From NCBI GenBank assembly GCA_030593065.1, contig JAUVHV010000002.1:33003-97002 (forward strand): a DNA stretch of 64,000 nt, in the 5' to 3' direction. This document shows positions 1-57,240 of this stretch, piece after piece (the stretch's first letter is position 1; each line of letters opens with the position of its first letter). Position numbers and translations under genes: made by a program. Below the pieces are notes generated by a model. The model was not told the DNA's origin. It was given only the letters and a program-made list of their open reading frames with translations, and made no database searches. This stretch comes from Candidatus Omnitrophota bacterium. Lineage in GTDB: Bacteria > Omnitrophota > Gorgyraeia > JABMRG01.

Positions 1-3000
1 GGCGGTGCGATTGCGAATTAGAGGCAGGGGAATCTGGATAATAATCCCCAATTCCTCAATATGCCTGCGTAAAGAAGCAGGAATAAGCTCTAAATATTCT
101 TCTTTAAGCGAACATACCCTTAAACCTGCTTTATCAACTATCTGTAATGGCATATCCCTGGCGCTGATTATTTTAAAGTTACCAAAGTTAGTCGATTTAT
201 TCTCAGTAGGTTTTGTGGCGATAAAATCGGATTGGGCCAATAGTTCTTTCTCTATAAGCAAAGGCTGTTTATTGCCTTCATAATCAAGAAGGTAAATAGT
301 AAAGTTCTCATTTTGGGCAAGGCCAGCAAAGGTCTTCCAACTCCTTTGGGCAAGCATAGCGTCAAGTTCGGGGATAGTATTATCAATCGTCTTAATCCGC
401 CGCACTGTTACGCCTTGTTTTACGCTTTCATCATTAACTTTGCGTATGCCGGTGAGTTTAATCGCCTTTGGCTTGCCTGATGTGTCTTTGATTACAGTAA
501 AACTAAAGATGTAAGCGCGGTCTCGGTTTTTAGTAATAAACTCCAGTCTATCTACCCCCTCAAATATGGTATATTTACCGGTACCAAAAAACCCGGCTAA
601 CTCTATCTGTTCCCCCTTTGCCTTAGTCGATTTAGGAATAAGCAGGGCTACTTCCTTAAGCGCGCCTGTGCCATCATCAGCAGCCTCTTCTACATACTCT
701 TCCTCTCCATACTCATTTTTCTGAAGGTAGAAATCAATTACCAGCTCTGAACTTTCCGCATCGCTTGAGTTCTGGGTAATCTCGCGAGCATAACCACCGG
801 ACTCAGCTTGCACGGTTATATTTTTCAATAACTCGGCCTCTAAGCTATTAGAACGCTTGGGGGGACTATGGATATGCTCAAGAAGATAATCTATATCCAT
901 AACTATATCCTCTTCACCGGCTTTGGGACGCCTCTGCTCTAATTTAATTATCTGAGAAAGTTCAATTCCCCCTTTAGCAAGGGCAAAATCTCTACCAATG
1001 AAAACAAGGCGCCTTTTTTCTTTTATCTGCTCTACCTCATTAGCAAGAAAGATTATAAATGCCCGCGCTTCACCCAGATTATGGGGTTTATCCGGGTGTT
1101 CAATATAGGAAAGAATATCATCGAAATCAAGAACCTTAAATGTCTGGTGCAATCTTTCCAGGAACTTTCTCTTTACCCCATCTTTTGCATCAAGAATTTT
1201 AGAGAGCTGATTTTTTACAACTTGGATATTTTTACCATCGTCCAAGCTTGCGGCACAGGAAAGAAATTGAACAATATCAGTAATCTCAGAGAGTTTAATC
1301 TGATTATAGGTTGCTCCTTTCAGATCCTGGATAAAACGGGCAATAAGAGGAATGGCATCAACCTTTTCCTGAGCATCTATATCCCACCCATGACCTAATA
1401 CCTCAAAAACATTGCTATCAATAACGTCAAATCTTAATTCAGGATTGCTGCTCAGCCAAAATAGTTGGCTAAATAAAATATTATAAAAGTCCTTTTGGAC
1501 TGTATATTCTTCCTGGGTGAGCAGACCTGCTACAGAATTGAGATATTCAGGAAGAACCTTCAGGATCTCGTGCATTCTTTCGCTAAGCATATCAAAGGGC
1601 AAAGGTATGCCTAAATCCAAAGTCTCACCACTTAAAGCGTCTTTATATCTTTTTACAATCTCTTTCTCCTGGTCTTCATACAGTTTAGTAATAAATTGTT
1701 TAATTATGCGTTCAATGTCCCCCTCATATTCTTCAGGAATTAGCTCAAGAAACGGTTCATAAGCAATTTTTGCCTGAGCGATGAATTCATCTCTTCTGGG
1801 CAAAATATTATTTTGCCACAATTTAATTGCCTTTTTTTCATCTTTAGTTTCAATTTCGAAATCCTGCTTAGTTTCGGGCATACCCGAAATCCCTCTCCAT
1901 TCATCATGATAGCTTTGTGCCACAGCTTGAGCAATAGCGGCTAAGGTTTCTGCTTTATGATCTGACGAAGGAATGTTATTTACTACTATAGTGAGGGCTT
2001 GGGTAACCAACTCCTGAGCCTGGGTGATGTTACCGCTTTGTGCCGCAGCCTGAGCAATAGCAGCTAAGGCTTTTGTTTTATGATAAAAGTCAAAAATATC
2101 ATTTTCTGTTATTGTGAGAGCTTGGGTGACCAACTCCTGGGCTTGGGTGATGTTACCGCTTTGTGCTGCAGCCTGAGCAATAGCAGCTAAGGCTTTTGTT
2201 TTATGATAATAAGAGTTAGAAATATCATTTTCTGCTATTGTGAGGGCTTGGGTGACCAACTCCTGAGCTTGGGTGATGTTGCCGCTTTGTGCTAGAGCTT
2301 GAGCAATAGCAGCTAAGGTTTTTGTTTTATAAGGGAGGTCAAGAATATCATTTCTTGCTATGGTGAGGGCTTGGGTAAATAACTTCTGGGCTTGGGTGAT
2401 GTTGCCGCTTTGTGCTGCAGCCTGAGCAATAGCAGCTAAGGTTTCTGCTTTATAAAAGGAACTGGTAATTTCATTTCTTACTATTGTAAGAGCTTGAGTA
2501 ATATCGCCGCTTTGTGCTAGAGCTTGAGCAATAGCAGTTAAGACTTCTGTTTTATAGGAGAAGTCAAGAATATCATTCCTTGCTATGGTAAGAGCTTGGG
2601 CAAATAACTTCTGGGCTTGGGTGATGTTGCCGCTTTGTGCTGCAGCCTGAGCAATAGCAGCTAAGGTTTTTGCTTTATAATAATAAGAGTCAGAAATATC
2701 ATTTTCTGCTATTGTGAGGGCTTGGGTGACCAACTCCTGAGATTGGGTAATATCGCCGCTTTGTGCTAGAGCTTGAGCAATAGCAGCTAAGGCTTCTGCT
2801 TTATAAAAAGGATCACTAATCTCATTCGCGGCAAGTAAAAGTCCGTTAAATATTTCTTCCTGCCTTGTATCAATGGGGCCTTGCGCAGAGACAAAAATCG
2901 GCTCTTCGGGCCTGGCGGGGTCGAGATAGATTACATCCCCGGTTTTGGGGTTGAGAAAGACAAAGTATTTGCCGTCAAAAGAGACAGAGCTATATTCATA

Positions 3001-6000
3001 AGCAACTTTCAGCTTGTCAGAAGCTATGCTACCTTCAAGCCACCAGGTATTCTCTAAAATTACGGATTGATGAGGAAAACAAGCAGTAACCGCACCATTA
3101 AAACAACCTGTTTGATCACCGTCGAGATTGTATTCATAAATTTTCCCTTCAAAGTAAGATATCAACTTGCTCCTCGTGGGTTTATAATTCACAACCTCAC
3201 CTTTAAAAGGAATTTTCTTGCCGGGTTCCATACCAATCGCCACTGGATTATCCGGATCAGAGTTGTCGATGAAAAGATCAAAATGAGGGTGCTTGTATGC
3301 GCCTTTTTGATTTAGTCTCTGGAGCGGATCTACTGAAATGACTCTGTGAAACCATTCACCATCCCTGGCTGCCTTGTATGTCCCATTAATAAAACCCTCT
3401 CTATAATCAAAAGGCCCAAAACTCTTATCATAGATATCACCTTCTTCGGTAAAAAATAATGTTCTATTATTTTCAAATATTACCCAATAAACTGCTTTAC
3501 CGTTTTTCCAGCCTGTGCCTATACTTTGTATCTCCTCCCCTCCAAAATCGGGTAGATAAAGCAGATTCTTTATCTTATGAATATAGATAAATGTATCTCC
3601 AGATGTTGTGCCAACTGCTACTGTATATGTTCCGGTAGAATCAGTATGCAGGTACTTAAGCAGGTACTTAAGTTCGTCTCCAGCACCAACGCACTTTCCT
3701 GTTTCCAAATCAATCAAACTCATCAACGCAGAATCTTTATCCCGCACAAAGGCCACATTAGCAAAAGGATTGATAGCGTATTCCACATTGCCTTTGCCCA
3801 GATTAATACGGCCGATTATTTCTCCACCCTTATCAGGGAAAAACTCTGCAATAAAGGCACCTTTGGAAATTTTTAATTTTGTTTTCGCGGAAGCTACTGC
3901 TTCTACTGGGATTATCTTTATAATCACAAGCTCTTTTTGGCCTGTTTCTTTGTCTTCCAAATAGGTCAAGTACTTGCCATCTTTGCTGAATTGGAGATCA
4001 GAATAAGGGTTTTGTAATGGCTTAACCGTAGGCTGCATAGAAAAACCTGACCCCAAATAATATTTTTGCCCATTCTCTACATCAAAGACTTCTCCATTCA
4101 TTGTGCCGTCTCTCCTTTGCACATAGGCAAAGCGTTTGCCAGATGGAATAATTATATCGCCTTCATCTTTAGAAACATGGAATACTGGTGGAAAAAAGAT
4201 ATCCTTACCTAATTTTTGGATATTACATGAACTCTTTGTTGTAACTTTATAGTATCCTTTTCCTAACAGTTCTATCTGCTCTATAGCTCTATGCCTACTG
4301 GCTATATTTGTCTCCAGGTCAAGCAGGTCTCCATTCTCTAACAATACAGTTTTTTGGTTAGCATCAAGAGGAGGTTTATTAGTTTTTGCGATTGGTGCTT
4401 CAACAGAAACAGGGGGCCTGGCAAGAAACTTATTAATTGCCTCTGAATCAATCTCGCCTTGGCTTTTTATAAGGTCAGCCTGAGAAGCTAATCTCAGGTT
4501 TTCTTTGGGTTTGGTAATCTCATAAGAGGTAACCACCTGTTCAGCGGTAATTATATTGACTATCTGTAAGAGCAAGGCCAATTCTCTCTCTTCATCACCT
4601 GTTAATCCTTTCACTCTTTTAGCTGTTAATTCACTAAGCCTCTTGCTGCCTGATAAGTTACTGGCAATGGCAATAAACCTGTCTGTCCTGATGATGGGCA
4701 ACCGGCCTTCCTGCTGCCAGGTATGCCACTGGCGATGGTATCTTAAGACACCTTTTAGGCTCTCTTCAGTAAATGGAACGAGAACCAGCGGTAAGTGTTT
4801 ATCCCCATCCAAGCTGATACCAGAGACTACAACTCCTCCGATCTCCTTAAGGCTCAATACCCCCTGCCAATCAAACAAGTTCTTATTCACAAACAGAACT
4901 TCTTTGCCTTGCGGAATGGTCAATTTTTTAAATAGTTTATCGTGGGGTAAAATAACAAAGTTCTCTTCTCTTAAGGCACTTATAATTTCCGCTAAAAGTT
5001 TCTGAGTATTCGCACAGATAGCCTTGATAGTGTGAGCATAGTTTTCATTGCCCTGGATTAATTCCTCAAGCCCCACTACAATGGTATTGATATATCTGAT
5101 TTTGTCAACATTGGAGAGGGTGGAATGACTGATGATTTCAATAATAGCTTTCTCTACTGCCAACTGAAAATTGGATTTTTCTCCCGACTTAAGTTCAAGT
5201 GGAATGATGATATTGTCCCGGGATTCAGGCACATCTAAAAGAGAGCCAAACTCAATCATCAGCCCGCCCTCAGTAGTAGCCTCTTTAGCAATATCCTGTG
5301 GAATGTCAACAGCCACAATCACCTCGCTGTTTCTGGAGAAAGAGACTCTATGGGGGAGTGTAGTATCCTGCACCACCTTAATCTTGCTAAGTTCTTTCTG
5401 AGCTGCTTCACCACTTAAAGGCTCTGGATGCTTGGTTCCCTGTTTAGGAACAAACATCCGGGAAAGAACCCCTGCTGCCATACCTCTACCATTATCTATT
5501 ATTTTTACTGTGTGCCCGCGTAATTGAATCTGAATATTACCCGCTCTTTTTTCCGGTGTATAAACCGAGTCTTTAGGAGGAACTATAACCTCTTTCTCTC
5601 CAAAACCATTCACTTTTTGGGGTTCTTTATTCTCTACTTGAGTGGTTATTTCTACAGCAGTAACATAAGGGAAACGCTTGTGAATAGCTTCTGCAATGCC
5701 TTCCTGGGAATTACGGCGTTGCCTACCAAGTTCCTCACCTGTTAATGGTAGCTTATTCTTAGTAGCTATCTTCACCACTGTTCCCTGCTCTACTGTCTGG
5801 CCACAGGCCTTTTGAAATACCTGAAGAGAAATCTTTCTAATCTGGATATAATTCTGCCCTTGTGTATCTTTGAGTATAATAAGCTGATAAGGCAGTCCTT
5901 GCTTTTCCTTTGTAAAAACATCTATCCTGTCTGCGCCCGTAGGCTCTAACCAATCAATGATTTGCTTGACACCTTTGCCAAATTGACCAATCTCAAGTCC

Positions 6001-8139
6001 AAGCGCATCAAGGCCGTTAGAAATAGCTTCTAATATTCCCTGGGCACGGGGATTTTTGTTTTGTCCAATAATCTCAATCCTTAGCCTGGGGTCCTGATAA
6101 GTTGAGTTATTAATAAGGTTGATAATCTCCCTGGTATAACCTTTTTCAGTAAGGCTCTCATAGATCCTCTGATAAGCAGCATCTCTGAAAAGCCCCTGTT
6201 TAACACCCAAAACAGAAAGAATTCTTTGCAGTACTTCCGATGGTAAATTCTGCTCCGCCAGTTTATTCTGCGCCCAGACAAAATGTTCAAGGCTAACTCC
6301 AAAAAAGTTTTGCTTAGAGTCCGAATATTCAAATGCCTGTTGGCTTTTCTTGACTATTTTGGCGTCTTGCGGCTTAAATGGTAACCAGGTCGATTCTAAA
6401 GAATCGCCCTCTTTGGCCCTCTCCTTGCCCGCAGAGGAGGCTTTTCCCTTCTCTGCCATATTCCAAATTTCTTTAAAAGCCTCTTTCGTATATTCTCTTA
6501 TTTCCCGTGGACAAAGATCGCCGTTAACAAGAGGCGCTGAGAGCATATGCTTAAAAGATTCTGTTAATTCCGCAATGTCCGGTAATATGCCTGCCATTCT
6601 GTCTGAGTACAGCTTTTCGTAATTTTCTATGCCAATGTTTGGACATATTACAACGTAGGATATATCTTTCTCTTTTAATATATTTGTTATGCCCTGGGTA
6701 TGAAAGCCGCCTGTTATGAGCATGGCTCTCTCTTTACGGCTGCGGCTCATAGCCTTTAGCGTGTTACCTACTAACGCTATGTCTCTTTTTAAAGCAAGTT
6801 GATAGTATCTTTTGGAATTATCTATCGCCTGTTGTTCTATGCAGGTTGAAGTGACAACATGGTTTAGATTCAGGCCATATTCAGCAAAAGCTGCTTTTAA
6901 AAATTGCTGAATATTTACAATGTTGGATGATTGTAAATTTTTATCTAAGTAATGCAGTTGCCTGGGGGTAAGTTCCAAGCTATATAGGCCTTGTAATATC
7001 TTTACTGACTTACTATACAATACCAGGTTTTTCTGAATGGGCGTTTTAGACAGGGCAAGCATAAGCTCCCCTTCCAGGTCTTCTGCTTCATCAAATACTT
7101 TAATATGGTTTATCTCTTTGGAGAATTTTAGGTAGTCGATGTATATGGTTAAGTGGTTATAGGTGTTTGGTGTTAAAAATTGTTCAAGATAATTATAAAA
7201 GGCTATATCCGAGAGCTTATTGAGTTTGAAGTCGAGGCTATTTTTAAGAAGCTCCTGCAGCTTCTCATTCTCTAGGTTTTCGGAGAGGTGCTTAATCAAC
7301 TCTTCTCTCTGAGCTTGGGCATCTTTAAAATCTACGCTCTTCTCTTTTTCAATAAGCCGGATGAACTCATTGAGGCTCTTATATTTCTCGATATCTACTT
7401 TTGTCTTTTTGGAGTAATATTGCAATGCTTCAAGATATTCCGGAAGTTGGAGCTGCTTTGCGTAATAAAAACCGGCTTTCTTATCTATATCTTTTAACTG
7501 TTTAGAATATACCTTTTTCTTTAAGATATTTATGCTTATTTCAACAGCTTTAAGGAATTTTAAGATTTTGTCTCTATCTAATCTATTCTCTTTGTAGGAT
7601 GCAAGGTGTTCTAAGTAGGCGGCTTTATCTTCCGTACCCTGAGCCTTGAGGGACTTATCCGTATTTGTTATCTTATAAAACTCAGCACCGGTAAAAAGGC
7701 CTTTTTCAACGAAGAGCTTAGCTGTTTTATTCTTTATCTTACCATCCGGGAATTTATTGTAGAACAAGGTATTGAGTTCTTTTGACGCACCCTCTAAACA
7801 CATAAGGTGTGTATTATGCTTTATATTAAACTCATCTATTATCTTCGCTATGTTAAGCTGGGCAACAGGGTCTATATGGCGGTCCTGGATATGTACAACC
7901 AAAAAGTCTCCTTCGCCCTTATAGGTATCTATGACCCTTCCTATCGATTCAGGTATAGTGATAGAGCCGGGATCGCTTACTATGTCAGTTCTTTTTTGCG
8001 TTAAACTATCCTCTACCAGATATCTTTTGGCATGAGGTTGTGATCCAAATAAGGTAGGATAGCAATAACCATAGGTACTGGTCAAAGCTATACTACTGCT
8101 GAGTATTATAGATAATATTCTTTTAATATTTAAACTCAT
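1..8139 (-). CDS. Giant multidomain protein. N-terminal 2713 codons lie in the window; the gene starts at ATG 8139 and runs off the window at position 1 without a stop.
   Basis: I translated the reverse complement block by block in the frame whose codons end at plus-strand coordinates divisible by 3. No stop codon occurs from 8139 down to 1. An in-frame TAG lies immediately upstream at 8140-8142. The N-terminus reads MSLNIKRILSIILSSSIALTSTYGYCYP. The ORF track omits it because it has no in-window stop. Confidence 0.8.
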   Translation of the reverse strand, partial: MSLNIKRILSIILSSSIALTSTYGYCYPTLFGSQPHAKRYLVEDSLTQKRTDIVSDPGSITIPESIGRVIDTYKGEGDFLVVHIQDRHIDPVAQLNIAKIIDEFNIKHNTHLMCLEGASKELNTLFYNKFPDGKIKNKTAKLFVEKGLFTGAEFYKITNTDKSLKAQGTEDKAAYLEHLASYKENRLDRDKILKFLKAVEISINILKKKVYSKQLKDIDKKAGFYYAKQLQLPEYLEALQYYSKKTKVDIEKYKSLNEFIRLIEKEKSVDFKDAQAQREELIKHLSENLENEKLQELLKNSLDFKLNKLSDIAFYNYLEQFLTPNTYNHLTIYIDYLKFSKEINHIKVFDEAEDLEGELMLALSKTPIQKNLVLYSKSVKILQGLYSLELTPRQLHYLDKNLQSSNIVNIQQFLKAAFAEYGLNLNHVVTSTCIEQQAIDNSKRYYQLALKRDIALVGNTLKAMSRSRKERAMLITGGFHTQGITNILKEKDISYVVICPNIGIENYEKLYSDRMAGILPDIAELTESFKHMLSAPLVNGDLCPREIREYTKEAFKEIWNMAEKGKASSAGKERAKEGDSLESTWLPFKPQDAKIVKKSQQAFEYSDSKQNFFGVSLEHFVWAQNKLAEQNLPSEVLQRILSVLGVKQGLFRDAAYQRIYESLTEKGYTREIINLINNSTYQDPRLRIEIIGQNKNPRAQGILEAISNGLDALGLEIGQFGKGVKQIIDWLEPTGADRIDVFTKEKQGLPYQLIILKDTQGQNYIQIRKISLQVFQKACGQTVEQGTVVKIATKNKLPLTGEELGRQRRNSQEGIAEAIHKRFPYVTAVEITTQVENKEPQKVNGFGEKEVIVPPKDSVYTPEKRAGNIQIQLRGHTVKIIDNGRGMAAGVLSRMFVPKQGTKHPEPLSGEAAQKELSKIKVVQDTTLPHRVSFSRNSEVIVAVDIPQDIAKEATTEGGLMIEFGSLLDVPESRDNIIIPLELKSGEKSNFQLAVEKAIIEIISHSTLSNVDKIRYINTIVVGLEELIQGNENYAHTIKAICANTQKLLAEIISALREENFVILPHDKLFKKLTIPQGKEVLFVNKNLFDWQGVLSLKEIGGVVVSGISLDGDKHLPLVLVPFTEESLKGVLRYHRQWHTWQQEGRLPIIRTDRFIAIASNLSGSKRLSELTAKRVKGLTGDEERELALLLQIVNIITAEQVVTSYEITKPKENLRLASQADLIKSQGEIDSEAINKFLARPPVSVEAPIAKTNKPPLDANQKTVLLENGDLLDLETNIASRHRAIEQIELLGKGYYKVTTKSSCNIQKLGKDIFFPPVFHVSKDEGDIIIPSGKRFAYVQRRDGTMNGEVFDVENGQKYYLGSGFSMQPTVKPLQNPYSDLQFSKDGKYLTYLEDKETGQKELVIIKIIPVEAVASAKTKLKISKGAFIAEFFPDKGGEIIGRINLGKGNVEYAINPFANVAFVRDKDSALMSLIDLETGKCVGAGDELKYLLKYLHTDSTGTYTVAVGTTSGDTFIYIHKIKNLLYLPDFGGEEIQSIGTGWKNGKAVYWVIFENNRTLFFTEEGDIYDKSFGPFDYREGFINGTYKAARDGEWFHRVISVDPLQRLNQKGAYKHPHFDLFIDNSDPDNPVAIGMEPGKKIPFKGEVVNYKPTRSKLISYFEGKIYEYNLDGDQTGCFNGAVTACFPHQSVILENTWWLEGSIASDKLKVAYEYSSVSFDGKYFVFLNPKTGDVIYLDPARPEEPIFVSAQGPIDTRQEEIFNGLLLAANEISDPFYKAEALAAIAQALAQSGDITQSQELVTQALTIAENDISDSYYYKAKTLAAIAQAAAQSGNITQAQKLFAQALTIARNDILDFSYKTEVLTAIAQALAQSGDITQALTIVRNEITSSFYKAETLAAIAQAAAQSGNITQAQKLFTQALTIARNDILDLPYKTKTLAAIAQALAQSGNITQAQELVTQALTIAENDISNSYYHKTKALAAIAQAAAQSGNITQAQELVTQALTITENDIFDFYHKTKALAAIAQAAAQSGNITQAQELVTQALTIVVNNIPSSDHKAETLAAIAQAVAQSYHDEWRGISGMPETKQDFEIETKDEKKAIKLWQNNILPRRDEFIAQAKIAYEPFLELIPEEYEGDIERIIKQFITKLYEDQEKEIVKRYKDALSGETLDLGIPLPFDMLSERMHEILKVLPEYLNSVAGLLTQEEYTVQKDFYNILFSQLFWLSSNPELRFDVIDSNVFEVLGHGWDIDAQEKVDAIPLIARFIQDLKGATYNQIKLSEITDIVQFLSCAASLDDGKNIQVVKNQLSKILDAKDGVKRKFLERLHQTFKVLDFDDILSYIEHPDKPHNLGEARAFIIFLANEVEQIKEKRRLVFIGRDFALAKGGIELSQIIKLEQRRPKAGEEDIVMDIDYLLEHIHSPPKRSNSLEAELLKNITVQAESGGYAREITQNSSDAESSELVIDFYLQKNEYGEEEYVEEAADDGTGALKEVALLIPKSTKAKGEQIELAGFFGTGKYTIFEGVDRLEFITKNRDRAYIFSFTVIKDTSGKPKAIKLTGIRKVNDESVKQGVTVRRIKTIDNTIPELDAMLAQRSWKTFAGLAQNENFTIYLLDYEGNKQPLLIEKELLAQSDFIATKPTENKSTNFGNFKIISARDMPLQIVDKAGLRVCSLKEEYLELIPASLRRHIEELGIIIQIPLPLIRNRTA
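560..790 (-). other. HSP90/sacsin/MORC-type HATPase (Bergerat fold) motif set in the C-proximal part of the giant protein
   Basis: N-box REITQNSSDA occupies 757-780. About 34 aa later, G1 box AADDGTGA occupies 661-678. About 28 aa later, G2 box GFFGTGKYTIF occupies 568-594. Order and spacing match HSP90 motifs I, II and III. Confidence 0.55.
1925..2815 (-). repeat. About 7.5 tandem copies of a 120-bp unit encoding 40-aa alpha-helical TPR-like repeats (one copy is 99 bp / 33 aa)
   Basis: The repeat is directly visible as a 120-nt periodicity: ttgtgc(c/t)gcagcctgagcaatagcagctaaggc ... gggcttgggtgatgtt. It translates to YKA(K/E)TLAAIAQA(A/L)AQSG(N/D)ITQAQ(E/K)L(V/F)TQALTIA(E/R)NDI. Confidence 0.9.
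2880..4300 (-). other. Beta-strand-rich region of the giant protein, possibly a beta-propeller
   Basis: Repeated patterns such as KDGKYLTY, GTYTVAVG and DGKYFVFLNPKTGDVIYL are reminiscent of propeller blades. This is inference only. Confidence 0.25.
5480..6050 (-). other. GHKL-superfamily-like motifs in the giant protein
   Basis: ILEAISNGLDAL is N-box-like (E-x-I-x-N-x-x-D-A). VKIIDNGRGMAAGV is G1-box-like (D-N-G-x-G-M). The spacing between them, about 180 aa, is atypical. Confidence 0.3.
6650..7920 (-). other. Region of the giant protein with TraB/GumN/Tiki-like motifs
   Basis: GDFLVVHIQDRH lies near 7890. The downstream motif MLITGGFHTQGITNILKEKDISYVV lies near 6690 and resembles the GxxH ... 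GGxHxxG pattern of the TraB/GumN family. This is a weak, motif-only call. Confidence 0.25.
8073..8118 (-). other. N-terminal hydrophobic segment of the giant protein (signal peptide or membrane anchor)
   Basis: Residues about 8-22 (ILSIILSSSIALTST) follow the positively charged stretch KR. Confidence 0.4.
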
Positions 8140-8344
8140 ACTTATACCCTATAAATAATCTTTACCTTATTAAAAGGTCTTAATATGTGGGGTTAATAAA
8201 CTGGCTGCTCACTTGTTTTGTCGCAACTCTTATTACTATATAAAAAAGATACCCTGTTTTTCGCTTTAAGTCAAGGGGGAGGGGCTATTTTTCGTATTAT
8301 TATTAGAGTTTCGTTGAAACTCTTTAGATTGGATAAGTGGTGAA

Positions 8345-8453
8345 AATATTACTTGTGTCTTCTGCCTTTAGCAGCGCATTGGCTTTTTTTGCCATGAACG
8401 TAAATAGACGGCAAAAATACCTGCGCTGCTAAAGGCAAAGGCATAAGTAATAT
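8345..8453. repeat. Palindromic ~110-bp intergenic element, copy 1 of 3
   Basis: Inverted arms (c)ttatgcctttgcctttagcagcgc / gcgctgctaaaggcaaaggcataag flank a centre that holds an inner hairpin ggctttttttgcc ... ggcaaaaatacc. Near-identical copies lie at 13674-13783 and 57139-57240. Confidence 0.85.
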
Positions 8454-8461
8454 TCCTATCA

Positions 8462-9115
8462 TTAGATAAATCCATGATTAGACAGGAATTCTTTACTTAG
8501 ATTTGTATTAGCAGAATAGCCAGTTGTATTTTTATCCATAAGATTATGAGCGTATTTTGCCAGGATATCTGTCTCGATATTTAACCTGCTGCCCCTATCC
8601 TTGTCTATAAGGGTTGTGGAATGCAATGTATGAGGTATAAGCATAATTGTAAAACTATTATTAGAGACATTATTCACTGTAAGGCTTACCCCATCTACAG
8701 TAACAGAGCCTTTTTCCGCTAAAAAGCGCTCAAAACCTTTAGCAATCTCTATTTTAATCTCTACACAATCTCCTTTAAGTATTTTGGAGAGTATCTTTGC
8801 CGTATAATCTATATGGCCTGTTACGAAATGGCCCCCTAACCTGTCTTCCATTTTTAATGAGCGTTCAACATTCACTTTTTCTCCTGCTGTTAAATCGGCT
8901 AAATTGGCCCTTTTCAAAGTCTCAGGGCTGACATCAAAAGTGAGTATAGCACCATCTATCTTCGTTAATGTCAGACAGCACCCGTTTACACTTATGCTAT
9001 CGCCTTGTTTTGAATGAAGAGAGCATACCTTGCTTTCAATGACTAATTGCGCGATCTTATCTGCGCAAAATAAATTCCTAACAATTCCTACCTCTTCAAT
9101 TATCCCTGTAAACAT
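8462..9115 (-). CDS. ribE: Riboflavin synthase alpha subunit
   Basis: N-terminus MFTGIIEEVGIVRN, with the internal lumazine-binding repeat. Confidence 0.9.
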   Translation of the reverse strand: MFTGIIEEVGIVRNLFCADKIAQLVIESKVCSLHSKQGDSISVNGCCLTLTKIDGAILTFDVSPETLKRANLADLTAGEKVNVERSLKMEDRLGGHFVTGHIDYTAKILSKILKGDCVEIKIEIAKGFERFLAEKGSVTVDGVSLTVNNVSNNSFTIMLIPHTLHSTTLIDKDRGSRLNIETDILAKYAHNLMDKNTTGYSANTNLSKEFLSNHGFI

Positions 9116-10199
9116 CTGTCTCCACCAAAAGATCCTTCCCTATCCTTTTTACCTTAAGATCTGTAAGTTTTACTGCCTGGCTTATTTTTGCCACTCCATC
9201 GCCGCCTATCGAGCAGGGAGCGCCCCTTCCGCCTATTAAGATTGGCGCAATAAAGAGATAAAGTTTATCAATGAATCGTTTTTCAAGCAAAGATGCCGCA
9301 ATTTCACCGCCGCCTTCTACCAGGACACTTCCTATCCCCATTAAAAGCAGCTGCTTCATAAGCGCTTTTAAACCAACCCTGTTTGAGATAGAGCCAACAC
9401 GTATAATACGGGCTCCTTTATCTCTTAGAGCACGCTCCTTAATCCTGGAAGAACGCATTGTTGTTGCTATAATAGTCTTTCCTGGGGATAGGCTGGTAAA
9501 TACCTTAGCAGTAAGAGGGGCCTTAAGCTTTGTATCTACTATTACCTTAAAGGGTTGCCTTTTTGAATTACGAATAGTAAGTGCTGGATCATCACTTATA
9601 AGTGTATTTATACCTATCAGGATAGCATCATGTTTTTTTCTTAAATCCTGAACAAGCTTTCGCGATTCCGGGGAACTTACCCATTTAGAATCACCTTTAT
9701 TTGTAGCGATCTTTCCATCCAGGCTCTGCGCGAGTTTTAAGGTAGTTAACGGCCTTTCTCGTCTCATCCTCCTGAAAAATCCTGTATTTAACGCCTCTGC
9801 CTCTCTCTTTAAAATGCCTGTGCTTACAATTATCCCATGTTGTTTAAGGATTTTCAAACCCCTGCCCCTGTTTAATGGATTAGGATCCTTAGCCGCGCAG
9901 ACAAGCTCTTTTACGCCTGAGCGGATAACCGTATCTACACAAGGTGGGGTTTTCCCATAATAGGCGCAGGGCTCAAGAGTTACATAACAGGTTGCGCCTT
10001 CTGCTTTTTTACCCGCTTTTTTTAAGGCAACTATCTCCGCATGAGGGCCGCCAAATTGCTTGTGATATCCGGAAGCTACTATTTTTTTATTCTTTGTAAT
10101 AACACAGCCTACCAGAGGATTAGGAGTTGTCTTATCCGCGCCTCTCTTTGCTTGCTTAATAGCAAGCCTCATATATTTTTCAGCTGTTTTTAGATCCAT
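9096..10199 (-). CDS. ribD: Bifunctional diaminohydroxyphosphoribosylaminopyrimidine deaminase / 5-amino-6-(5-phosphoribosylamino)uracil reductase
   Basis: Deaminase motifs HAEIVAL and PCxxC (TLEPCAYYGKTPPC) are followed by the C-terminal reductase domain. Confidence 0.9.
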   Translation of the reverse strand: MDLKTAEKYMRLAIKQAKRGADKTTPNPLVGCVITKNKKIVASGYHKQFGGPHAEIVALKKAGKKAEGATCYVTLEPCAYYGKTPPCVDTVIRSGVKELVCAAKDPNPLNRGRGLKILKQHGIIVSTGILKREAEALNTGFFRRMRRERPLTTLKLAQSLDGKIATNKGDSKWVSSPESRKLVQDLRKKHDAILIGINTLISDDPALTIRNSKRQPFKVIVDTKLKAPLTAKVFTSLSPGKTIIATTMRSSRIKERALRDKGARIIRVGSISNRVGLKALMKQLLLMGIGSVLVEGGGEIAASLLEKRFIDKLYLFIAPILIGGRGAPCSIGGDGVAKISQAVKLTDLKVKRIGKDLLVETDVYRDN

Positions 10200-11004
10200 T
10201 TTTTAAGGCCTCGACATAAGAATAAGGAATTGAAGTCTTTCCTATTAAACTAGTGCCTTTGGCATCACCATGGCAATCAGAGCCACCTGTAATTATCAGG
10301 CTGTTCTCAATAGCAAACTTCTCATAGCGCTTTGCCGTTAAACCAACCTGTTCAGTATGAAAAACCTCTATTCCTTCTAATCCTTCTTTTACCAGCCTTG
10401 GCAATATCGAGTCGAGCCTATTGACCACAGGATGGGCTATTACCGGTACACCATTGGCCTTTCTTATAAAATCGATTACCATTTTCGAAGTATACCTAAA
10501 ATTTGATACATAGCAGGATTTTGTATCCCCTATATACTTTTTAAAAGCAACGCGCCAATTAGGAATAAGCCCTTTAGCTTCCATATACTTAGCAATATGA
10601 AGCCTGCTTATAGACACGCCACCTGTAAATTTTATAATGTCTTCAGCATCTATGTTTAAGCCATGGCCATTAAGAGCATCTACCATCTTGTAGAGCCTCT
10701 CTATCCTGTCCTGCCTTATCTTACTTAGAAACCCCAAAAAAACAGGATCCCTGTAATCTATACAGTAACCGAGTATATGCATCTCCTTACCACTCTCCTC
10801 AGCGCTTACTTCAACACCAGGTATAATCTCAACGCTATACCTATTACCCGCGCTCATAGCCTCATCAAGTCCGGATACACTGTCATGGTCTGTAATAGCA
10901 ATACAGCACAGCCCCTCTTTACTCGCAACCCGCACAGCCTCTTCGGGGCTAAAAGAGCCATCCGAATATTTTGTATGTACATGAAGGTCTGCCAGTCTTT
11001 TCAT
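10180..11004 (-). CDS. PHP-domain metal-dependent phosphoesterase (TrpH/YciV-like)
   Basis: N-terminus LHVHTKYSDGSFSPEE ... ITDHD. Confidence 0.8.
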   Translation of the reverse strand: MKRLADLHVHTKYSDGSFSPEEAVRVASKEGLCCIAITDHDSVSGLDEAMSAGNRYSVEIIPGVEVSAEESGKEMHILGYCIDYRDPVFLGFLSKIRQDRIERLYKMVDALNGHGLNIDAEDIIKFTGGVSISRLHIAKYMEAKGLIPNWRVAFKKYIGDTKSCYVSNFRYTSKMVIDFIRKANGVPVIAHPVVNRLDSILPRLVKEGLEGIEVFHTEQVGLTAKRYEKFAIENSLIITGGSDCHGDAKGTSLIGKTSIPYSYVEALKNGSKNS

Positions 11005-11430
11005 CTATTTTTTTAGCTCTTTTTTATTTATCTTATCTAAAATACCATTTACAAATTTACCTGATTCCAGATCACCATATTTTTTTGCCAGATCCACAGC
11101 CTCATTTATCGACACTTTTGCGGGTATATCATCAAGGAAGAGAAGCTCGTAACAGCTCATACGCATTATATTCCTGTCAATTACTGCCATTCTCTTAAGC
11201 TGCCAGTTTTGAGCATACAATGATATCGTAGTGTCTATTTTTTTAAGATTTTTATGAGTACCTTGTGCGAGATTTGTGGCAAACTCCTGTATAGACCTCT
11301 CCATCTCTTCAGGGTGCTGAGATAGGTTTTCCCAGAAACTACCCAGCATGGAACTTATCTCCTCATGCCTTATATCAGCTTGATATAAAAGTTGCAATGC
11401 CAATTCTCTTGCTCTTGTTCTCTTTCTCAT
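11005..11430 (-). CDS. nusB: Transcription antitermination factor NusB
   Basis: N-terminus [17 protein letters not shown]. Confidence 0.9.
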
Positions 11431-11897
11431 TTGCTAATGACGTTTAAAAGATTTGCCATCTCAATAGCTGATATAGCGGCATCCCTGCCTTTATTTCCTT
11501 CTTTTGCTCCGGCACGCTTTATAGCCTGCTCAAGGTTATCAGCAGTAATCACGCCAAAGATAGTAGGTATATTCGCGTCCAGGCCCACCCTGGCAACACC
11601 CTTGGCAACCTCTGATGCTATATAATCAAAATGTGGTGTCTCCCCGCGAATAATAGTGCCAAGACAGATTATTGCGTCATATTTTTTAGAGGCTGCCATC
11701 TTCTTAGCAACAAGCGGTACCTCAAACGCGCCAGGCACCCAGGCAACTTCTATATCCTGGTCTTTTCCGCCATGCCTTATTAATGTGTCTATGCATGCTT
11801 CCAGCAGTTTCTTTGTAATAAAATCATTAAAACGTGATATCACAATGCCAAAGTTTTTCCCCTTCGCGATTAACGCGCCTTCTAATATCTTTACCAT
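11427..11897 (-). CDS. ribH: 6,7-dimethyl-8-ribityllumazine synthase
   Basis: [11 protein letters not shown] ... GAFE(V/I)P motifs. Confidence 0.9.
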
Positions 11898-11911: not shown

Positions 11912-13108
11912 TTATATGTTTTCCAGGTAATGGCCAAGCTTATCCTTCTTGGCCTTTAAATATCTTTTATTCTCATTTGTCATACCAATCTCAATCGGCA
12001 CTCTCTCTATAATTCTAAGGCCATATCCTTCAAGGCCTATAACCTTCTGCGGGTTATTTGTAAGCAGCCTAATATTACTTATACCAAGATCTGCCAGTAT
12101 CTGCGCTCCTATACCGTAATCTCTTAGATCAGCTTCAAAGCCAAGGGCATGATTTGCCTCTACAGTATCAAGCCCTTCATCCTGTAATGAATAAGCTTTA
12201 ACCTTATTGACAAGCCCAATGCCCCTTCCTTCCTGACTCATATATAACAGAACTCCGCAACCCTGATCACTGATCTTTTTGAGCGCACTATGTAACTGTT
12301 GTCCGCAATCACACCTTTTTGAACCAAATATATCACCTGTAAGGCACTGAGAATGAACCCTTACCAGCACCCCGTTAATATTCCTATGTTTTATATCGCC
12401 TTTTACCATAGCAATATGGTGATAATTATCTATTTTTGATTCATAAACATGTAATGTAAAATCACCAAACTGTGTAGGTAATTTTGCCTGCGCAAGGTGC
12501 CTTATAAGCTTATCGCATTTACGCCTGTATTCTATAAGGTCCTTTATCGAGCATATCTTTAAGTTATGCTCCTTGGCATGCTCTAATAGTTCAGGCGTGC
12601 GCGCCATTGTACCATCATCATTCATTATCTCGCAAATAACACCTGCTGGAGAAACCTTCGCAAGCCTTGCAAGGTCAATAGATGCCTCGGTATGGCCTGC
12701 TCGTACCAATACACCGCCTTCTTTTGAACGCAAAGGAAATATATGGCCCGGACGCGCAAGATCTTCAGGTTTCGCGTTTGAAGCTATCAAAACCTTGACA
12801 GTTCGTGCTCTATCGTATGCGGATATACCTGTTGTTATGCCTTCTGCCGCATCTACTGAGATAGCCCATGCAGTGCCAAAAGGTGTATTTGAGCTATGTA
12901 TCATAGGATGTAAACCGAGCTTATCCATAATGTTGCCTTCAAGCGAAACGCATATAAGGCCCCGGCCATACCTTGCCATAAAATTTATATTTTCTGCAGT
13001 TGCAAACGAGGCAGCGACAACAAGGTCTCCTTCGTTCTCGCGTGATTCATCATCAATCACTATAACTATCTTGCCTTGCTTTATATCTTCTACTACTTCT
13101 GGTATTGT
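11912..13108 (-). CDS. ribBA: Bifunctional DHBP synthase / GTP cyclohydrolase II. I place the start at GTG 13108; the ORF-track ATG at 13201 lies inside the riboswitch.
   Basis: RibB N-terminal motif [23 protein letters not shown] and GTP cyclohydrolase II motifs (CxCG ... RDY). An AAGGAG Shine-Dalgarno sequence lies 7 nt upstream of GTG 13108, after the riboswitch terminator. Confidence 0.85.
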
Positions 13109-13139
13109 GTTTAAATTCACTCTATTGCTCCTTAAATAT

Positions 13140-13170
13140 AAAAATCCCGAAGGATAACCTTCGGGACATA
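13140..13170 (-). terminator. Intrinsic terminator hairpin, the expression platform of the FMN riboswitch
   Basis: On the minus strand: gtcccgaaggttatccttcgggatttttata. This is a GC stem followed by a T-run, and then the SD and GTG of ribBA. Confidence 0.6.
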
Positions 13171-13174
13171 ATAT

Positions 13175-13325
13175 CATAAAAACTGCCTTCTCTTCTCTCA
13201 TCTAGACTATACTATTGGCAAAGGAATCACACCTTTTCTGCCCTGTTAAAGGCTCGTCGGCTTTACGACCAGTAGGGAATTACGCCCTATCCCGAAGACG
13301 AGATAAGTATACCATAAACTTCAAA
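13175..13325 (-). promoter_or_regulatory. FMN riboswitch (RFN element) aptamer in the leader of ribBA-ribH-nusB
   Basis: Minus-strand sequence CTTCGGGATAGGGCGTAATTCCCTACTGGTCG ... GCCAATAGT ... AGTCTAGATGAGAGAAG matches conserved RFN blocks. B. subtilis has CTTCGGGGCAGGGTGAAATTCCCGACCGGCGG ... GCCGACAGT ... AGTCTGGATGGGAGAAG. Confidence 0.7.
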
Positions 13326-13388
13326 TCTGTCAAGCGAAAACAAAAAAGTTACCTATAATCTCTCATCCGCTGCCCTCCTCTACGCTGA

Positions 13389-13542
13389 GAGTTTTGGTGC
13401 AGCTTTTGCAGGAACGTGAAATTTTTCCCTGCGAGAAAAATTTCACTCCAAGTTGGCGCTCGCTCTCGCGTAGAACTTAATCAGGGCGAACCATGCCCGC
13501 TCGCACCACCAAGGTCCTGCGTAAGCTGCACCAAAACTCTCT
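13389..13542. repeat. 154-bp element bounded by 19-bp perfect inverted repeats, with a nested inner hairpin
   Basis: Outer arms gagagttttggtgcagctt / aagctgcaccaaaactctc. Inner hairpin gtgaaatttttc ... gaaaaatttcac. The element is intergenic, between the riboswitch and the GGDEF gene. Confidence 0.7.
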
Positions 13543-13673
13543 CTTGAGGGGGCAAGGCTTGTAAGCAAACTCCTCTTGCTGTTTATTAAGAATTGTTCTG
13601 AAAACCAGCTTTTTGAGCAATGAGAACAGAACTTCTTTCTTGCGAGCATTCTCTGGCTTGGGCAAGAAACTAG

Positions 13674-13783
13674 AATATTACTTATGCCTTTGCCTTTAGC
13701 AGCGCATTGGCTTTTTTTGCCCTGAGTGTAAATAGATAGCAAAAATACCTGCGCTGCTAAAGGCAAAGGCATAAGTAATATTC
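13674..13783. repeat. Palindromic ~110-bp element, copy 2 of 3 (33-bp perfect arms)
   Basis: gaatattacttatgcctttgcctttagcagcgc ... gcgctgctaaaggcaaaggcataagtaatattc. Confidence 0.85.
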
Positions 13784-13851
13784 CTATCAGCAAAAGTTGC
13801 TGCGAAACTCTCAACTTAGATGGAAACAGCTTTGATCTTTCTTTTAATTGC

Positions 13852-13879
13852 AGCTTGACAATGGCGAACATCGTTATAT
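13852..13879 (+). promoter_or_regulatory. Putative sigma70-type promoter of the GGDEF gene
   Basis: TTGACA, a 16-17 nt spacer, then TATAAT. The first ATG codons follow immediately at 13883 and 13892. Confidence 0.35.
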
Positions 13880-13882
13880 AAT

Positions 13883-54322: not shown

Positions 54323-55213
54323 TCAGTATGGCATCACGTAGCTCTCTTCATCAACAATATTCATATAATCTTCAAAAGTCATTTGGCCTGTTATCTCCTT
54401 GTTTACATGTGCCTTTCTGGCAGAAAGGTAAGGGTGGGTAAACCAATAGCGCTTTGGCCCGGTCTTTCTTTCCATCTGCCACTGAAGAAGTTTATCAAGT
54501 GCGCTAAGCATGCCTTCAGGGTTATAACCTGCCTTCTTAAGATATTTTACTGCCAGGGCATCCGCCTCAAACTCATCTTCCCTGCTGTTTGCAAGCATGA
54601 GCTGTCCGAAAGCCTCGCCTGCCTTACGGCGTGTATAAGAATCCTTCGCGCCTCTCATAACAAGTATCTGCATAATCTGATAACCAAGGCTGCTCTGAAG
54701 CCTTTTTATACCATGCCTTGCGCAGACATGGCCTACCTCATGTGCTATAATAGCGGCAAGCTCATCATCATCCAACTTTTCAAGCAGTGCCTTAAAGATA
54801 TATACATACCCTCCGGGAAGCGCGAAAGCATTCTCAATATCATCCTTATCAAGTACCTTGAACGTAAAAATAAGTTCTTTCCTGTCAGATACATCCGCTA
54901 TCTTTTTGCCAATCTCCGCGACCTTCTCCTGGTTAAGATAATTCTCATCAAGGTCAAATTTTTCTTCAACCTGCTCAGCTATAGAGCGGCCCATATTTAT
55001 CTCCTTTTCTTTGGAGATAAGAAGGTTTTCTTCCCGGCCTGTAGCAAGATTATATTCAGGGTAAGCGTAATTTGTGATAAAAATAGAAGATAAAACCGAC
55101 AGGCTAATAAACAACTTACTGATATTCATTAACAACCTATTTCTCATGCAGTAAATTAAAAAGCAAGCGCTTATAAGCCGAGTTCTGTTAATTAGCAAGC
55201 GCGTAAGTAACAT
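54323..55213 (-). CDS. M48-family Zn metallopeptidase (probable start at the internal Met, near 55129)
   Basis: HEVGH zinc-binding motif plus a downstream E. The signal peptide reads MNISKLFISLSVLSSIF. Confidence 0.8.
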   Translation of the reverse strand: MLLTRLLINRTRLISACFLIYCMRNRLLMNISKLFISLSVLSSIFITNYAYPEYNLATGREENLLISKEKEINMGRSIAEQVEEKFDLDENYLNQEKVAEIGKKIADVSDRKELIFTFKVLDKDDIENAFALPGGYVYIFKALLEKLDDDELAAIIAHEVGHVCARHGIKRLQSSLGYQIMQILVMRGAKDSYTRRKAGEAFGQLMLANSREDEFEADALAVKYLKKAGYNPEGMLSALDKLLQWQMERKTGPKRYWFTHPYLSARKAHVNKEITGQMTFEDYMNIVDEESYVMPY

Positions 55214-55224
55214 ACACTTGTTAA

Positions 55225-55620
55225 TCAGATGGCCATCTATCTTGTCCTGTCATTACTGGCAGGATCCTTATCCTCTTTAAGGAAAATAGCGACCTAACCC
55301 ACTCCGCTAACTGAGGAACGGACCATTCCTATGGCGGAGCCTATTTGGTCTTGCACCACGTAGAGATTGCCGCGTTTCACATCACGATTAAATGCAATTA
55401 TGCTATAAGAGAGTTTCAGGCCGTCAGGCTCAAATACTCTCATGCGCAAAGCAATAATCGATACTCGTCTCTGTGGCTCTTATCCGTCCCCACTTTTGTT
55501 TTACAAAAATGGGAAGGCGGGCGTTACCCGCTACGCTGTCCTATGGAGCTCGGACTTTCCTCCCCCATAGCTCTACTTAAACAAAGTTAAACATGAGGGT
55601 AGCCATCAAGCGCCTGCTTC
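55225..55620 (-). ncRNA. rnpB: RNase P RNA, bacterial type A (ends approximate)
   Basis: Minus-strand sequence GAAGCAGGCG ... GGGGGAGGAAAGUCCGAGCUCCAUAGGACAGCGUAGCGGGUAACGCCCGCC ... GGUGCAAGACCAAAUAGGCUCCGCCAUAGGAAUGGUCCG. It matches the conserved P4 and universal regions of E. coli M1 RNA (GGAGGAAAGUCCGGGCUCCAUAGGGCAGGGUGCCAGGUAACGCCUGG ... AGCAAGGCCAAAUAGGGG). Confidence 0.8.
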
Positions 55621-56915: not shown

Positions 56916-56992
56916 TGGTAGCGGCGAGTGGAATTGAACCACTGACAACACGGGTATGAGCCGTGTGCTCTAACCATCTGAGCTACGCCGCC
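56916..56992 (-). tRNA. tRNA with anticodon CAU (elongator Met, or Ile2 if lysidine-modified). The 3' CCA is encoded.
   Basis: I folded it manually. The acceptor stem is GGCGGCG / CGCCGCU. The D stem is GCUC / GAGC. The anticodon stem is CACGG / CCGUG with loop CUCAUAC. The T stem is AGUGG / CCACU with loop UUCAAUU. It lacks the initiator-type anticodon stem GGG/CCC. Confidence 0.85.
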
Positions 56993-57138: not shown

Positions 57139-57240
57139 ATCTCTTATGCCTTTGCCTTTAGCAGCGCTTTGGCTTTTTTTGCCATAAATGTAAATAGACG
57201 GCAAAAATACCTGCGCTGCGAAGGCAAAGGCATAAGAGAT
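57139..57240. repeat. Palindromic ~110-bp element, copy 3 of 3
   Basis: atctcttatgcctttgcctttagcagcgc ... gcgctgcgaaggcaaaggcataagagat. Confidence 0.85.

Follow-up and report, generated by a model that had tools for sequence, protein, structure and literature searches.

[quoted passage not shown] In both species an RF00050 aptamer sits beside the promoter and an intrinsic terminator precedes the first rib gene, which is ribD in the ribDG-E-AB-H-T operon of B. subtilis. A second relevant arrangement is the ribD-ribE-ribBA-ribH-nusB cluster of Proteobacteria, Nitrospirota and Desulfobacterota, for example the main riboflavin operon of V. cholerae, where nusB directly follows ribH (PMC5312566). 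Of the 651 FMN-riboswitch units surveyed in that work, just 5 contain nusB, and its authors argue that repression by flavins is avoided for global regulators (PMC5312566).

The locus described here lies on the minus strand of the window, by which we mean the whole 64,000-nucleotide stretch of a Candidatus Omnitrophota contig that was analysed. We are confident that it is a canonical FMN attenuator heading a six-gene operon, ribBA-ribH-nusB-PHP-ribD-ribE, in which binding of FMN, termination in vivo and co-transcription of the six genes are the predicted behaviour. An FMN riboswitch with a classical terminator/antiterminator platform is a known kind of element, and this one is ordinary and well formed. 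With respect to B. subtilis and L. lactis, however, the operon begins with ribBA instead of ribD and adds nusB and a PHP-domain gene, the spacer between aptamer and terminator is very short (18 nt), P1 has 5 canonical pairs and the host is uncultivated and Omnitrophota-like. The nusB clusters of the other phyla, in turn, carry no FMN riboswitch in the loci examined, whereas the window unit is headed by one; its order is also cyclically permuted, with ribBA first, and PHP is inserted after nusB.

The original prediction placed an FMN riboswitch at 13140-13325 and proposed a search with the Rfam model RF00050. Run over the whole window, this search returned a single match, at 13303..13186 on the minus strand, which covers model positions 1-138 of 138 and, at 100.6 bits (E 3.7e-22), clears the gathering score of 66.2 and lies far above chance expectation. 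The two RFN blocks that had been pointed out, CTTCGGGATAGGGCGTAATTCCCTAC and AGTCTAGATGAGAGAAG, are both present on that strand. The element is real, though the predicted span stops short of the -35 box (13333..13328) at one end and of both ribosome-binding site and start codon at the other.

The aptamer (13186..13303, minus strand), with helices P1 to P6, ends 65 nt before the ribBA start on the same strand, and the promoter lies directly 5' of it. The core of P1 pairs 13298..13294 with 13195..13191. Two outer P1 pairs are non-standard according to cmscan, and P1 has only 5 canonical pairs in this clade. Thermodynamic folding with RNAfold did not recover the full aptamer fold, and the whole leader reaches a z-score of only -1.9. 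The comparative evidence comes from 20 Omnitrophota-type loci, window included, whose ribBA is preceded by an FMN aptamer according to RF00050 and to a model derived from eight of these aptamers. Their alignment, which was fitted to the model from eight of the same sequences and therefore somewhat favours the structure, has standard pairs in 96.3% of its cells, against 34-54% paired in slid controls. Each helix from P1 to P6 is 93-100% paired, compensatory changes on both sides occur at 17 of the 30 pairs, and the covariation score was reached by none of 500 shuffles. The P4 loop also contains a boxA-like GCCUUUAACAG, one base short of the E. coli boxA consensus, which was considered as a NusB/E site; since the loop is not alike in relatives, we treat the motif as a chance occurrence.

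Directly upstream, a sigma-70-type promoter spans 13306..13333 on the minus strand, with the -35 box TTGACA, a 16-nt spacer and the extended -10 element TGgTATACT, whose hexamer occupies 13311..13306. By pattern scan it agrees with 11 of 12 consensus positions, plus the TG, and transcription is predicted to start at about 13300-13298, at the foot of P1. A TTGACA/TATAAT-like pair lies at an equal distance from the aptamer in all 12 relatives inspected, and the promoter is near-identical in the closest ones, L086 and L087. The region 13134-13333 is regulatory RNA and promoter, not coding sequence; the plus-strand ORF 12573..13157 is probably spurious, being antisense to ribBA and to the riboswitch leader. 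Beyond the promoter, an Rfam search of 13320-13880 at a permissive threshold yielded nothing but generic hairpins of the miRNA-precursor kind, on both strands, at a palindromic repeat, and the structure at 13376-13560 had no Rfam match at that threshold.

The leader ends at a ribosome-binding site, AAGGAG (13133..13128), and, after a 7-nt spacer, at the GTG start codon of ribBA (13120..13118), the two together spanning 13118..13133 on the minus strand. A GTG start had been preferred over the ATG at 13201, and rightly so, but it had been put at 13108, where the coding strand has an ACA codon; the in-frame GTG lies 12 nt away, at 13120..13118. The ATG at 13201 does sit inside the aptamer, as had been claimed: it belongs to the conserved GAUG of J6/1, just 5' of the 3' strand of P1. 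The suggested comparison of RibB N-termini with those of relatives also supports the GTG, at 13120. In 11 related leaders the start codon is 0-1 codon away from the equivalent of GTG 13120, and the proteins open with M-[FL]-N-x-I or M-K-L-N-T-I-P where the window has M-N-L-N-T-I-P. In L086 and L087 the GTG itself is kept, with independent gene calls of 402 aa each, and the position of the window ATG 13201 is ACG in L087. Moreover, in the GTG product the Pfam DHBP_synthase domain starts at residue 8 and the NF006803 profile at residue 2. Relatives and profiles thus favour GTG 13120 over both longer candidates, ATG 13201 (429 aa), inside the aptamer, and ATG 13177 (a 421-aa Logan call), inside the aptamer/platform, either of which would have the aptamer and the terminator translated. 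For annotation, the ribBA product should be taken as 402 aa from GTG 13120, as the automatic 429- and 421-aa calls begin inside the riboswitch.

Between aptamer and start codon, the terminator expression platform proposed at the outset was found as a hairpin plus T-run at 13167..13134, to which the present analysis adds an antiterminator conserved in relatives. The terminator scan placed the intrinsic terminator hairpin at 13144..13167 on the minus strand (DNA GTCCCGAAGG-ttat-CCTTCGGGAT; RNA GUCCCGAAGG-uuau-CCUUCGGGAU). Its stem has 10 pairs, 6 of them G-C, closed by a 4-nt loop and followed by TTTTATATTT, with a stem energy of -17.0 kcal/mol; the U-tract UUUUAUAUUU occupies 13134..13143 on the same strand.

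[quoted passage not shown] The resulting antiterminator duplex, 13298..13289 with 13167..13158, has 10 bp and an energy of -15.8 kcal/mol, a value that shuffled terminator 5' arms (about -3 to -6 kcal/mol) did not reach in two independent sets of 200. Simulated folding of the nascent transcript gave the same picture. Up to the aptamer end the aptamer helices form; in a transcript ending at 13155 the minimum free energy structure (-40.0 kcal/mol) pairs UCUUCGGGAU with GUCCCGAAGG; and once the terminator 3' arm is added, the terminator hairpin replaces the antiterminator. With the full leader, the antiterminator-forced fold has -45.0 kcal/mol against -51.9 kcal/mol for the terminator-forced one, so that, according to these folding models, the choice is probably kinetic and made co-transcriptionally. 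An antiterminator built from the 3' strand of P1 and the terminator 5' arm was also considered and set aside in favour of the 5'-strand pairing, as it reaches only -0.9 kcal/mol here and is weak or inconsistent in relatives; against the two terminator arms the P1 3' strand gives weak duplexes of -0.9 and -6.0 kcal/mol.

The switch is conserved beyond the window. A terminator hairpin with co-varying arms is kept in about 20 relatives, and the aptamer 5' segment is complementary to the terminator 5' arm of its own locus in all 12 of the loci first inspected and in 19-20 of 20 later on. Three loci illustrate how the segments change together: L018, with aptamer 5' segment CTTCAGGGC, terminator 5' arm GCCCTGAAG and terminator 3' arm CTTCAGGGT; L010, with CTTTAGGGC, GCCCAAAGA and TCTTTGGGT in the same order; and L005, with CTTCGGGGT, ACCCCGAGGA and TCCGAGGGGT. 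Duplexes between aptamer segment and terminator arm average -13.84 kcal/mol within a locus and -11.21 kcal/mol across loci, and 0 of 5000 permutations gave a mean as low, figures that are supportive and not formal probabilities since the loci are phylogenetically related. Read in this way, they suggest that the two pairing segments co-evolve across related loci. The same aptamer-terminator complementarity is found in two ribD/ribE-first loci, one labelled Bacillota (L045) and one unclassified (L066).

Mechanistically, transcription would begin at the sigma-70-type promoter abutting the aptamer. At low FMN, UCUUCGGGAU (13298..13289) would capture GUCCCGAAGG (13167..13158) as soon as the latter is transcribed, giving a long-range antiterminator that encloses the aptamer. 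With the terminator stem blocked in this manner, the polymerase would enter ribBA at GTG 13120, and read-through would most likely span all six overlapping or abutting genes. Binding of FMN to the nascent aptamer, on the other hand, would close P1 and hold the 5' segment, leaving the hairpin 13167..13144 to form ahead of the U-tract and to stop transcription 14-23 nt before the start codon.

The gene content that had been proposed for the unit, ribBA-ribH-nusB-PHP-ribD-ribE, is matched by Pfam and NCBIfam profiles, and RibBA, RibH, NusB, RibD and RibE each score above a curated equivalog cutoff. All six genes are on the minus strand. ribBA (11912..13120) encodes a bifunctional DHBP synthase / GTP cyclohydrolase II of 402 aa (NF006803, 625 bits, cutoff 569; PF00926 and PF00925), and is followed by ribH (11427..11897), the lumazine synthase gene (TIGR00114, 181 bits, cutoff 84.6), and by nusB (11005..11430), for the transcription antitermination factor (TIGR01951, 145.6 bits, cutoff 88.35). 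The gene at 10180..11004 encodes a PHP-domain phosphoesterase of the TrpH/YciV type (PF02811; NF041577, under its cutoff). Downstream come ribD (9096..10199), the pyrimidine deaminase/reductase (TIGR00326, 362 bits, cutoff 156), and ribE (8462..9115), the riboflavin synthase and last gene of the unit (NF006767, 216.7 bits, cutoff 155).

These genes are tightly packed, the intergenic distances from ribBA to ribE being 14, -4, 0, -20 and -20 nt: ribH and nusB share a 4-nt overlap (ATGA), PHP abuts nusB, and both PHP/ribD and ribD/ribE overlap by 20 nt. PHP is translationally coupled to nusB and ribD. A pattern scan for terminators between the operon genes found none. One terminator-like site within PHP (10754..10742) was discarded, having a 5-bp stem in coding sequence, with 3 such sites counted where 5.3 are expected. 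Directly after the ribE stop codon lies a long, near-perfect hairpin of 117 nt (8345..8461, minus strand; -59.2 kcal/mol, z -9.8). It is a copy of a dispersed palindromic repeat with 92-93% identical copies at 13674..13789 and 57143..57236; the transcript probably ends here, and the hairpin may act as a terminator or stabiliser.

The gene order had been called unusual, a description that holds against other phyla and fails within the lineage. The comparison set comprised 80 loci obtained by a genome scan with RibBA; most of the best matches, which reach 64% identity, carry the label Candidatus Omnitrophota. In about 36 of the 80, all from other phyla, ribD and/or ribE lie upstream of ribBA, with ribH-nusB often after it, which corresponds to the familiar ribD-ribE-ribBA-ribH(-nusB) order. 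In about 23, ribBA leads and ribD-ribE lie downstream; most of these loci are Omnitrophota, and a few bear Planctomycetia, Auribacter or Eisenbacteria labels. The complete order ribBA-ribH-nusB-PHP-ribD-ribE occurs in around 26 related loci, mostly labelled Candidatus Omnitrophota, and is therefore the lineage norm and not a peculiarity of the window. PHP is found between nusB and ribD in 18 of the 80 loci, while in L013, L024 and L043 the operon is the same except that PHP is missing. The identical six-gene order also surrounds all 8 further metagenomic PHP homologues that were looked up (45-100% identity), and the SMC and GAF-GGDEF neighbours are the same in the 4 of these 8 contigs that extend far enough to include the upstream flank. 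In about six related operons with this gene order, RF00050 and the aptamer-derived model detect no riboswitch.

The unusual aspect of the locus is the combination of riboswitch and nusB, which is rare in published surveys. In our comparison set, nusB is absent from the riboswitch-bearing loci that begin with ribD/ribE (two labelled Bacillota, one Dendrosporobacter sp., one Spirochaetales and one unclassified), and where Nitrospirota, Desulfobacterota and other phyla have nusB in the cluster, the riboswitch is missing. In the Omnitrophota-type loci the two occur together in about 20 species. Because the genes overlap or abut, the packing of the window operon would place nusB and PHP under FMN control, as the original prediction had held.

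It could also be, however, that the riboswitch governs only ribBA and ribH, and that nusB, PHP, ribD and ribE owe most of their expression to one or several internal promoters, in which case the essential NusB would escape FMN. The scarcity of nusB in the 651 surveyed units (PMC5312566) speaks for such an arrangement, as do the ribH-nusB gaps of some relatives, which measure 70-142 nt in L005, L014 and L058 and 83-95 nt in L086-L088 and could hold a promoter. In the window itself, the 4-nt overlap of ribH with nusB and the abutment of nusB and PHP leave no intergenic room, and the operon holds 19 promoter-like matches where chance predicts 18.3, the best of those inside ribH agreeing with only 9 of 12 positions. 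The recurrence of riboswitch plus nusB in about 20 species argues further that the arrangement is not a one-off. Riboswitches seldom terminate every transcript, and a basal supply of NusB would persist under FMN repression. Taken globally, we regard separate expression of the distal genes as unlikely, and retain the reading in which the attenuator controls all six.

The second question raised by the operon is what the PHP protein does. Its family matches are limited to PF02811 and PHP-type NCBIfam models, and it scores under the equivalog cutoffs of the latter (NF041577, 166.8 against 400 bits; NF047791, 151 against 375 bits). The best relatives of solved structure are 2YB1, the 3',5'-nucleotide bisphosphate phosphatase Cv1693 (E 8e-30), 3E0F, a B. 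adolescentis phosphoesterase, 9ETK, and 7UG9, the E. coli RNase AM (E 5e-23). RNase AM coordinates three metals through His13, Asp20, His45, Glu72, His83, His198, Asp255 and His257, holds a buried 5'-phosphate with Arg107, Arg110 and Arg141, and stacks a base on Phe161 (PMC9410882). The operon protein resembles Cv1693 and RNase AM over nearly its full length, including the metal ligands, the arginine triad and the stacking phenylalanine. Residues H8, H10, D15, H40, E65, H76, H191, D243 and H245 are invariant in the 18 operon PHPs as well as in Cv1693, RNase AM and 3E0F, and R100, R103, R134 and F154, which correspond to R107, R110, R141 and F161 of RNase AM, are invariant in the 18 operon proteins, whose mutual identity is only 35-76%. 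One difference from RNase AM is R201, which contacts the bound sulfate/phosphate there and is a hydrophobic residue in the operon PHP.

From these alignments, PHP is a member of the pAp phosphatase/RNase AM-like family, its exact activity lying below the level of equivalog assignment. The invariant arginine triad and phenylalanine point to a substrate that carries a nucleotide 5'-phosphate besides the phosphate to be cleaved, and the protein is thus probably nucleotide-directed, either a pAp phosphatase or a 5'-to-3' oligoribonuclease, and not the missing phosphatase of the riboflavin pathway.

The competing view is that PHP sits in the operon for flavin metabolism, as the dedicated ARAPDP phosphatase or as a hydrolase of FAD-capped RNA or flavin nucleotides, instead of being a housekeeping enzyme that travels with nusB. 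Its constant position between nusB and ribD, often with overlaps of 4-20 nt, in the 18 genome loci despite the low identity, and again around the 8 metagenomic homologues, is consistent with such a role, and PHP is downstream of an FMN riboswitch in most of the rib operons that carry it. The ARAPDP phosphatases known so far come only from the HAD, histidine-phosphatase and IMPase families and never from a rib operon (PMC12051542, PMC13151069), and PHP falls outside all three folds (HAD YigB/YcsE, A. aeolicus histidine phosphatase and IMPase). The related E. coli RNase AM, in addition, strips FAD caps from RNA and binds FAD (PMC9410882), which keeps a flavin-linked role of PHP in play as a low-probability idea. 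We found no report of a TrpH/YciV PHP inside a riboswitch-headed rib operon in the literature searched.

Several observations go against a flavin role. ARAPDP has a single phosphate, which makes it a less likely substrate for a protein with the invariant R100/R103/R134/F154 set. Operon membership is itself weak evidence, since nusB shares the operon and shows that its genes need no riboflavin function, and L013, L024 and L043 dispense with PHP altogether. Finally, the 62 loci that lack the insertion, 59 of which belong to other phyla, show no PHP near the rib genes or within 7 kb of nusB, a result that also disposes of a general linkage between PHP and nusB. A function of PHP in flavin metabolism is accordingly improbable in our estimate, and a nucleotide-directed enzyme is the preferred reading.

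A mainly translational control, with the hairpin as sequestor of the ribosome-binding site or with action at both levels, is very improbable: the ribosome-binding site does lie directly 3' of the U-tract, and the full-length minimum free energy fold extends the terminator helix by pairing AGGAGC (13132..13127) with an upstream GUUUUU, but these are weak A-U and G-U pairs, the site is partly paired in the antiterminator-forced fold too so that its pairing cannot tell the two states apart, the hairpin-to-start distance ranges from 9 to 100 nt among relatives so that the pairing is not conserved, and in all relatives examined the hairpin runs into a T-rich tail. Such a tail is a classic sign of an intrinsic terminator, and transcription attenuation stays the favoured mechanism.

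Seen from the biology of the group, the analysis documents a classical attenuator of the B. subtilis type in an uncultivated, poorly studied phylum, and its modest interest lies in a rib operon that is headed by a riboswitch and systematically includes nusB and a PHP phosphoesterase. The roughly 20 independent examples of nusB within an FMN-riboswitch unit are a counter-example to the reported anticorrelation (5/651, PMC5312566). As a candidate for an activity linked to flavins, the PHP phosphoesterase would be inexpensive to test, even if its residues indicate an ordinary nucleotide-directed enzyme. There is a slim chance that PHP takes part in the flavin metabolism of Omnitrophota, as a fourth, operon-encoded type of ARAPDP phosphatase or by releasing FAD or flavin nucleotides from capped RNA at low FMN, and that NusB is tied to flavin status. 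If true, the tie between NusB and flavin would run against the published rule, and a dedicated phosphatase step of riboflavin synthesis would be filled.

The riboswitch and the rib operon are flanked on both sides by copies of a near-perfect palindrome, a long hairpin of 95-117 nt present in three copies (8345-8461, 13674-13789 and 57143-57236), all in the same orientation. The first lies directly 3' of the ribE stop codon, and the third is adjoined by a tRNA gene. The copies share 92-93% identity, and the hairpin has a fold z of -9.8. Rfam searches of both strands returned generic hairpin matches only. In appearance the palindrome suggests either a dispersed element of the REP/MITE type or a terminator that is used repeatedly.

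Just upstream of the predicted rib promoter, folding revealed a separate, highly structured long hairpin (13376-13560), with -106 kcal/mol and a z of -6.9 over 261 nt. Its fold is about equally strong on either strand and only one copy is present in the window; no Rfam match was found for it, and it is missing from the corresponding region of the close relative L087. Part of this hairpin, together with the entire palindrome copy at 13674-13789, is covered by a 142-aa ORF (13443..13871), which is probably spurious.

Within the FMN aptamer itself, the P4 loop bears a string, GCCUUUAACAG (13243-13253, minus strand), that resembles, with one base missing, the E. coli boxA consensus for NusB/E binding, GCUCUUUAACA. 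The string stands in the leader of an operon that itself encodes NusB. Since the P4 loop shows no conservation in relatives, this resemblance, seen in the sequence, is probably due to chance.

Beyond the operon, a giant ORF of at least 2716 aa (1-8148, minus strand) starts downstream of the hairpin that follows ribE and runs off the window start. Its sole Pfam match is to TPR repeats, at approximately residues 1780-2020. Close relatives, in contrast, carry acylphosphatase and DNA ligase genes in this place. Elsewhere in the window, Rfam identified a class A RNase P RNA gene (55158-55618, minus strand, 143 bits), with several sizeable insertions relative to the consensus, and a tRNA gene (56919-56992, minus strand) lies nearby.

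Among the related operons, the gene call at the ribD position in L084 (3284-3709) is just 141 aa long and includes the deaminase domain but lacks the RibD_C reductase domain. The gene could be genuinely split here, or the short call could stem from a frameshift or from an error in the assembly.

Large insertions, from ~40 to >130 nt and located in peripheral loops, were found in the FMN aptamers of five related Omnitrophota loci (L006, 6679-6944; L009, 6662-6918; L014, 6695-6948; L039, 6622-6847; L086, 2514-2668). These insertions reduce the Rfam scores to 70-77 bits, just over the threshold, so that routine annotation could miss such variants. Upstream of ribBA in six other loci, no FMN aptamer was detectable; five of these (L007, L011, L016, L058 and L063) have the same gene order as the window, and L013 has the same order minus the PHP phosphoesterase gene. 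Some members of the lineage have thus lost the riboswitch or had it replaced.
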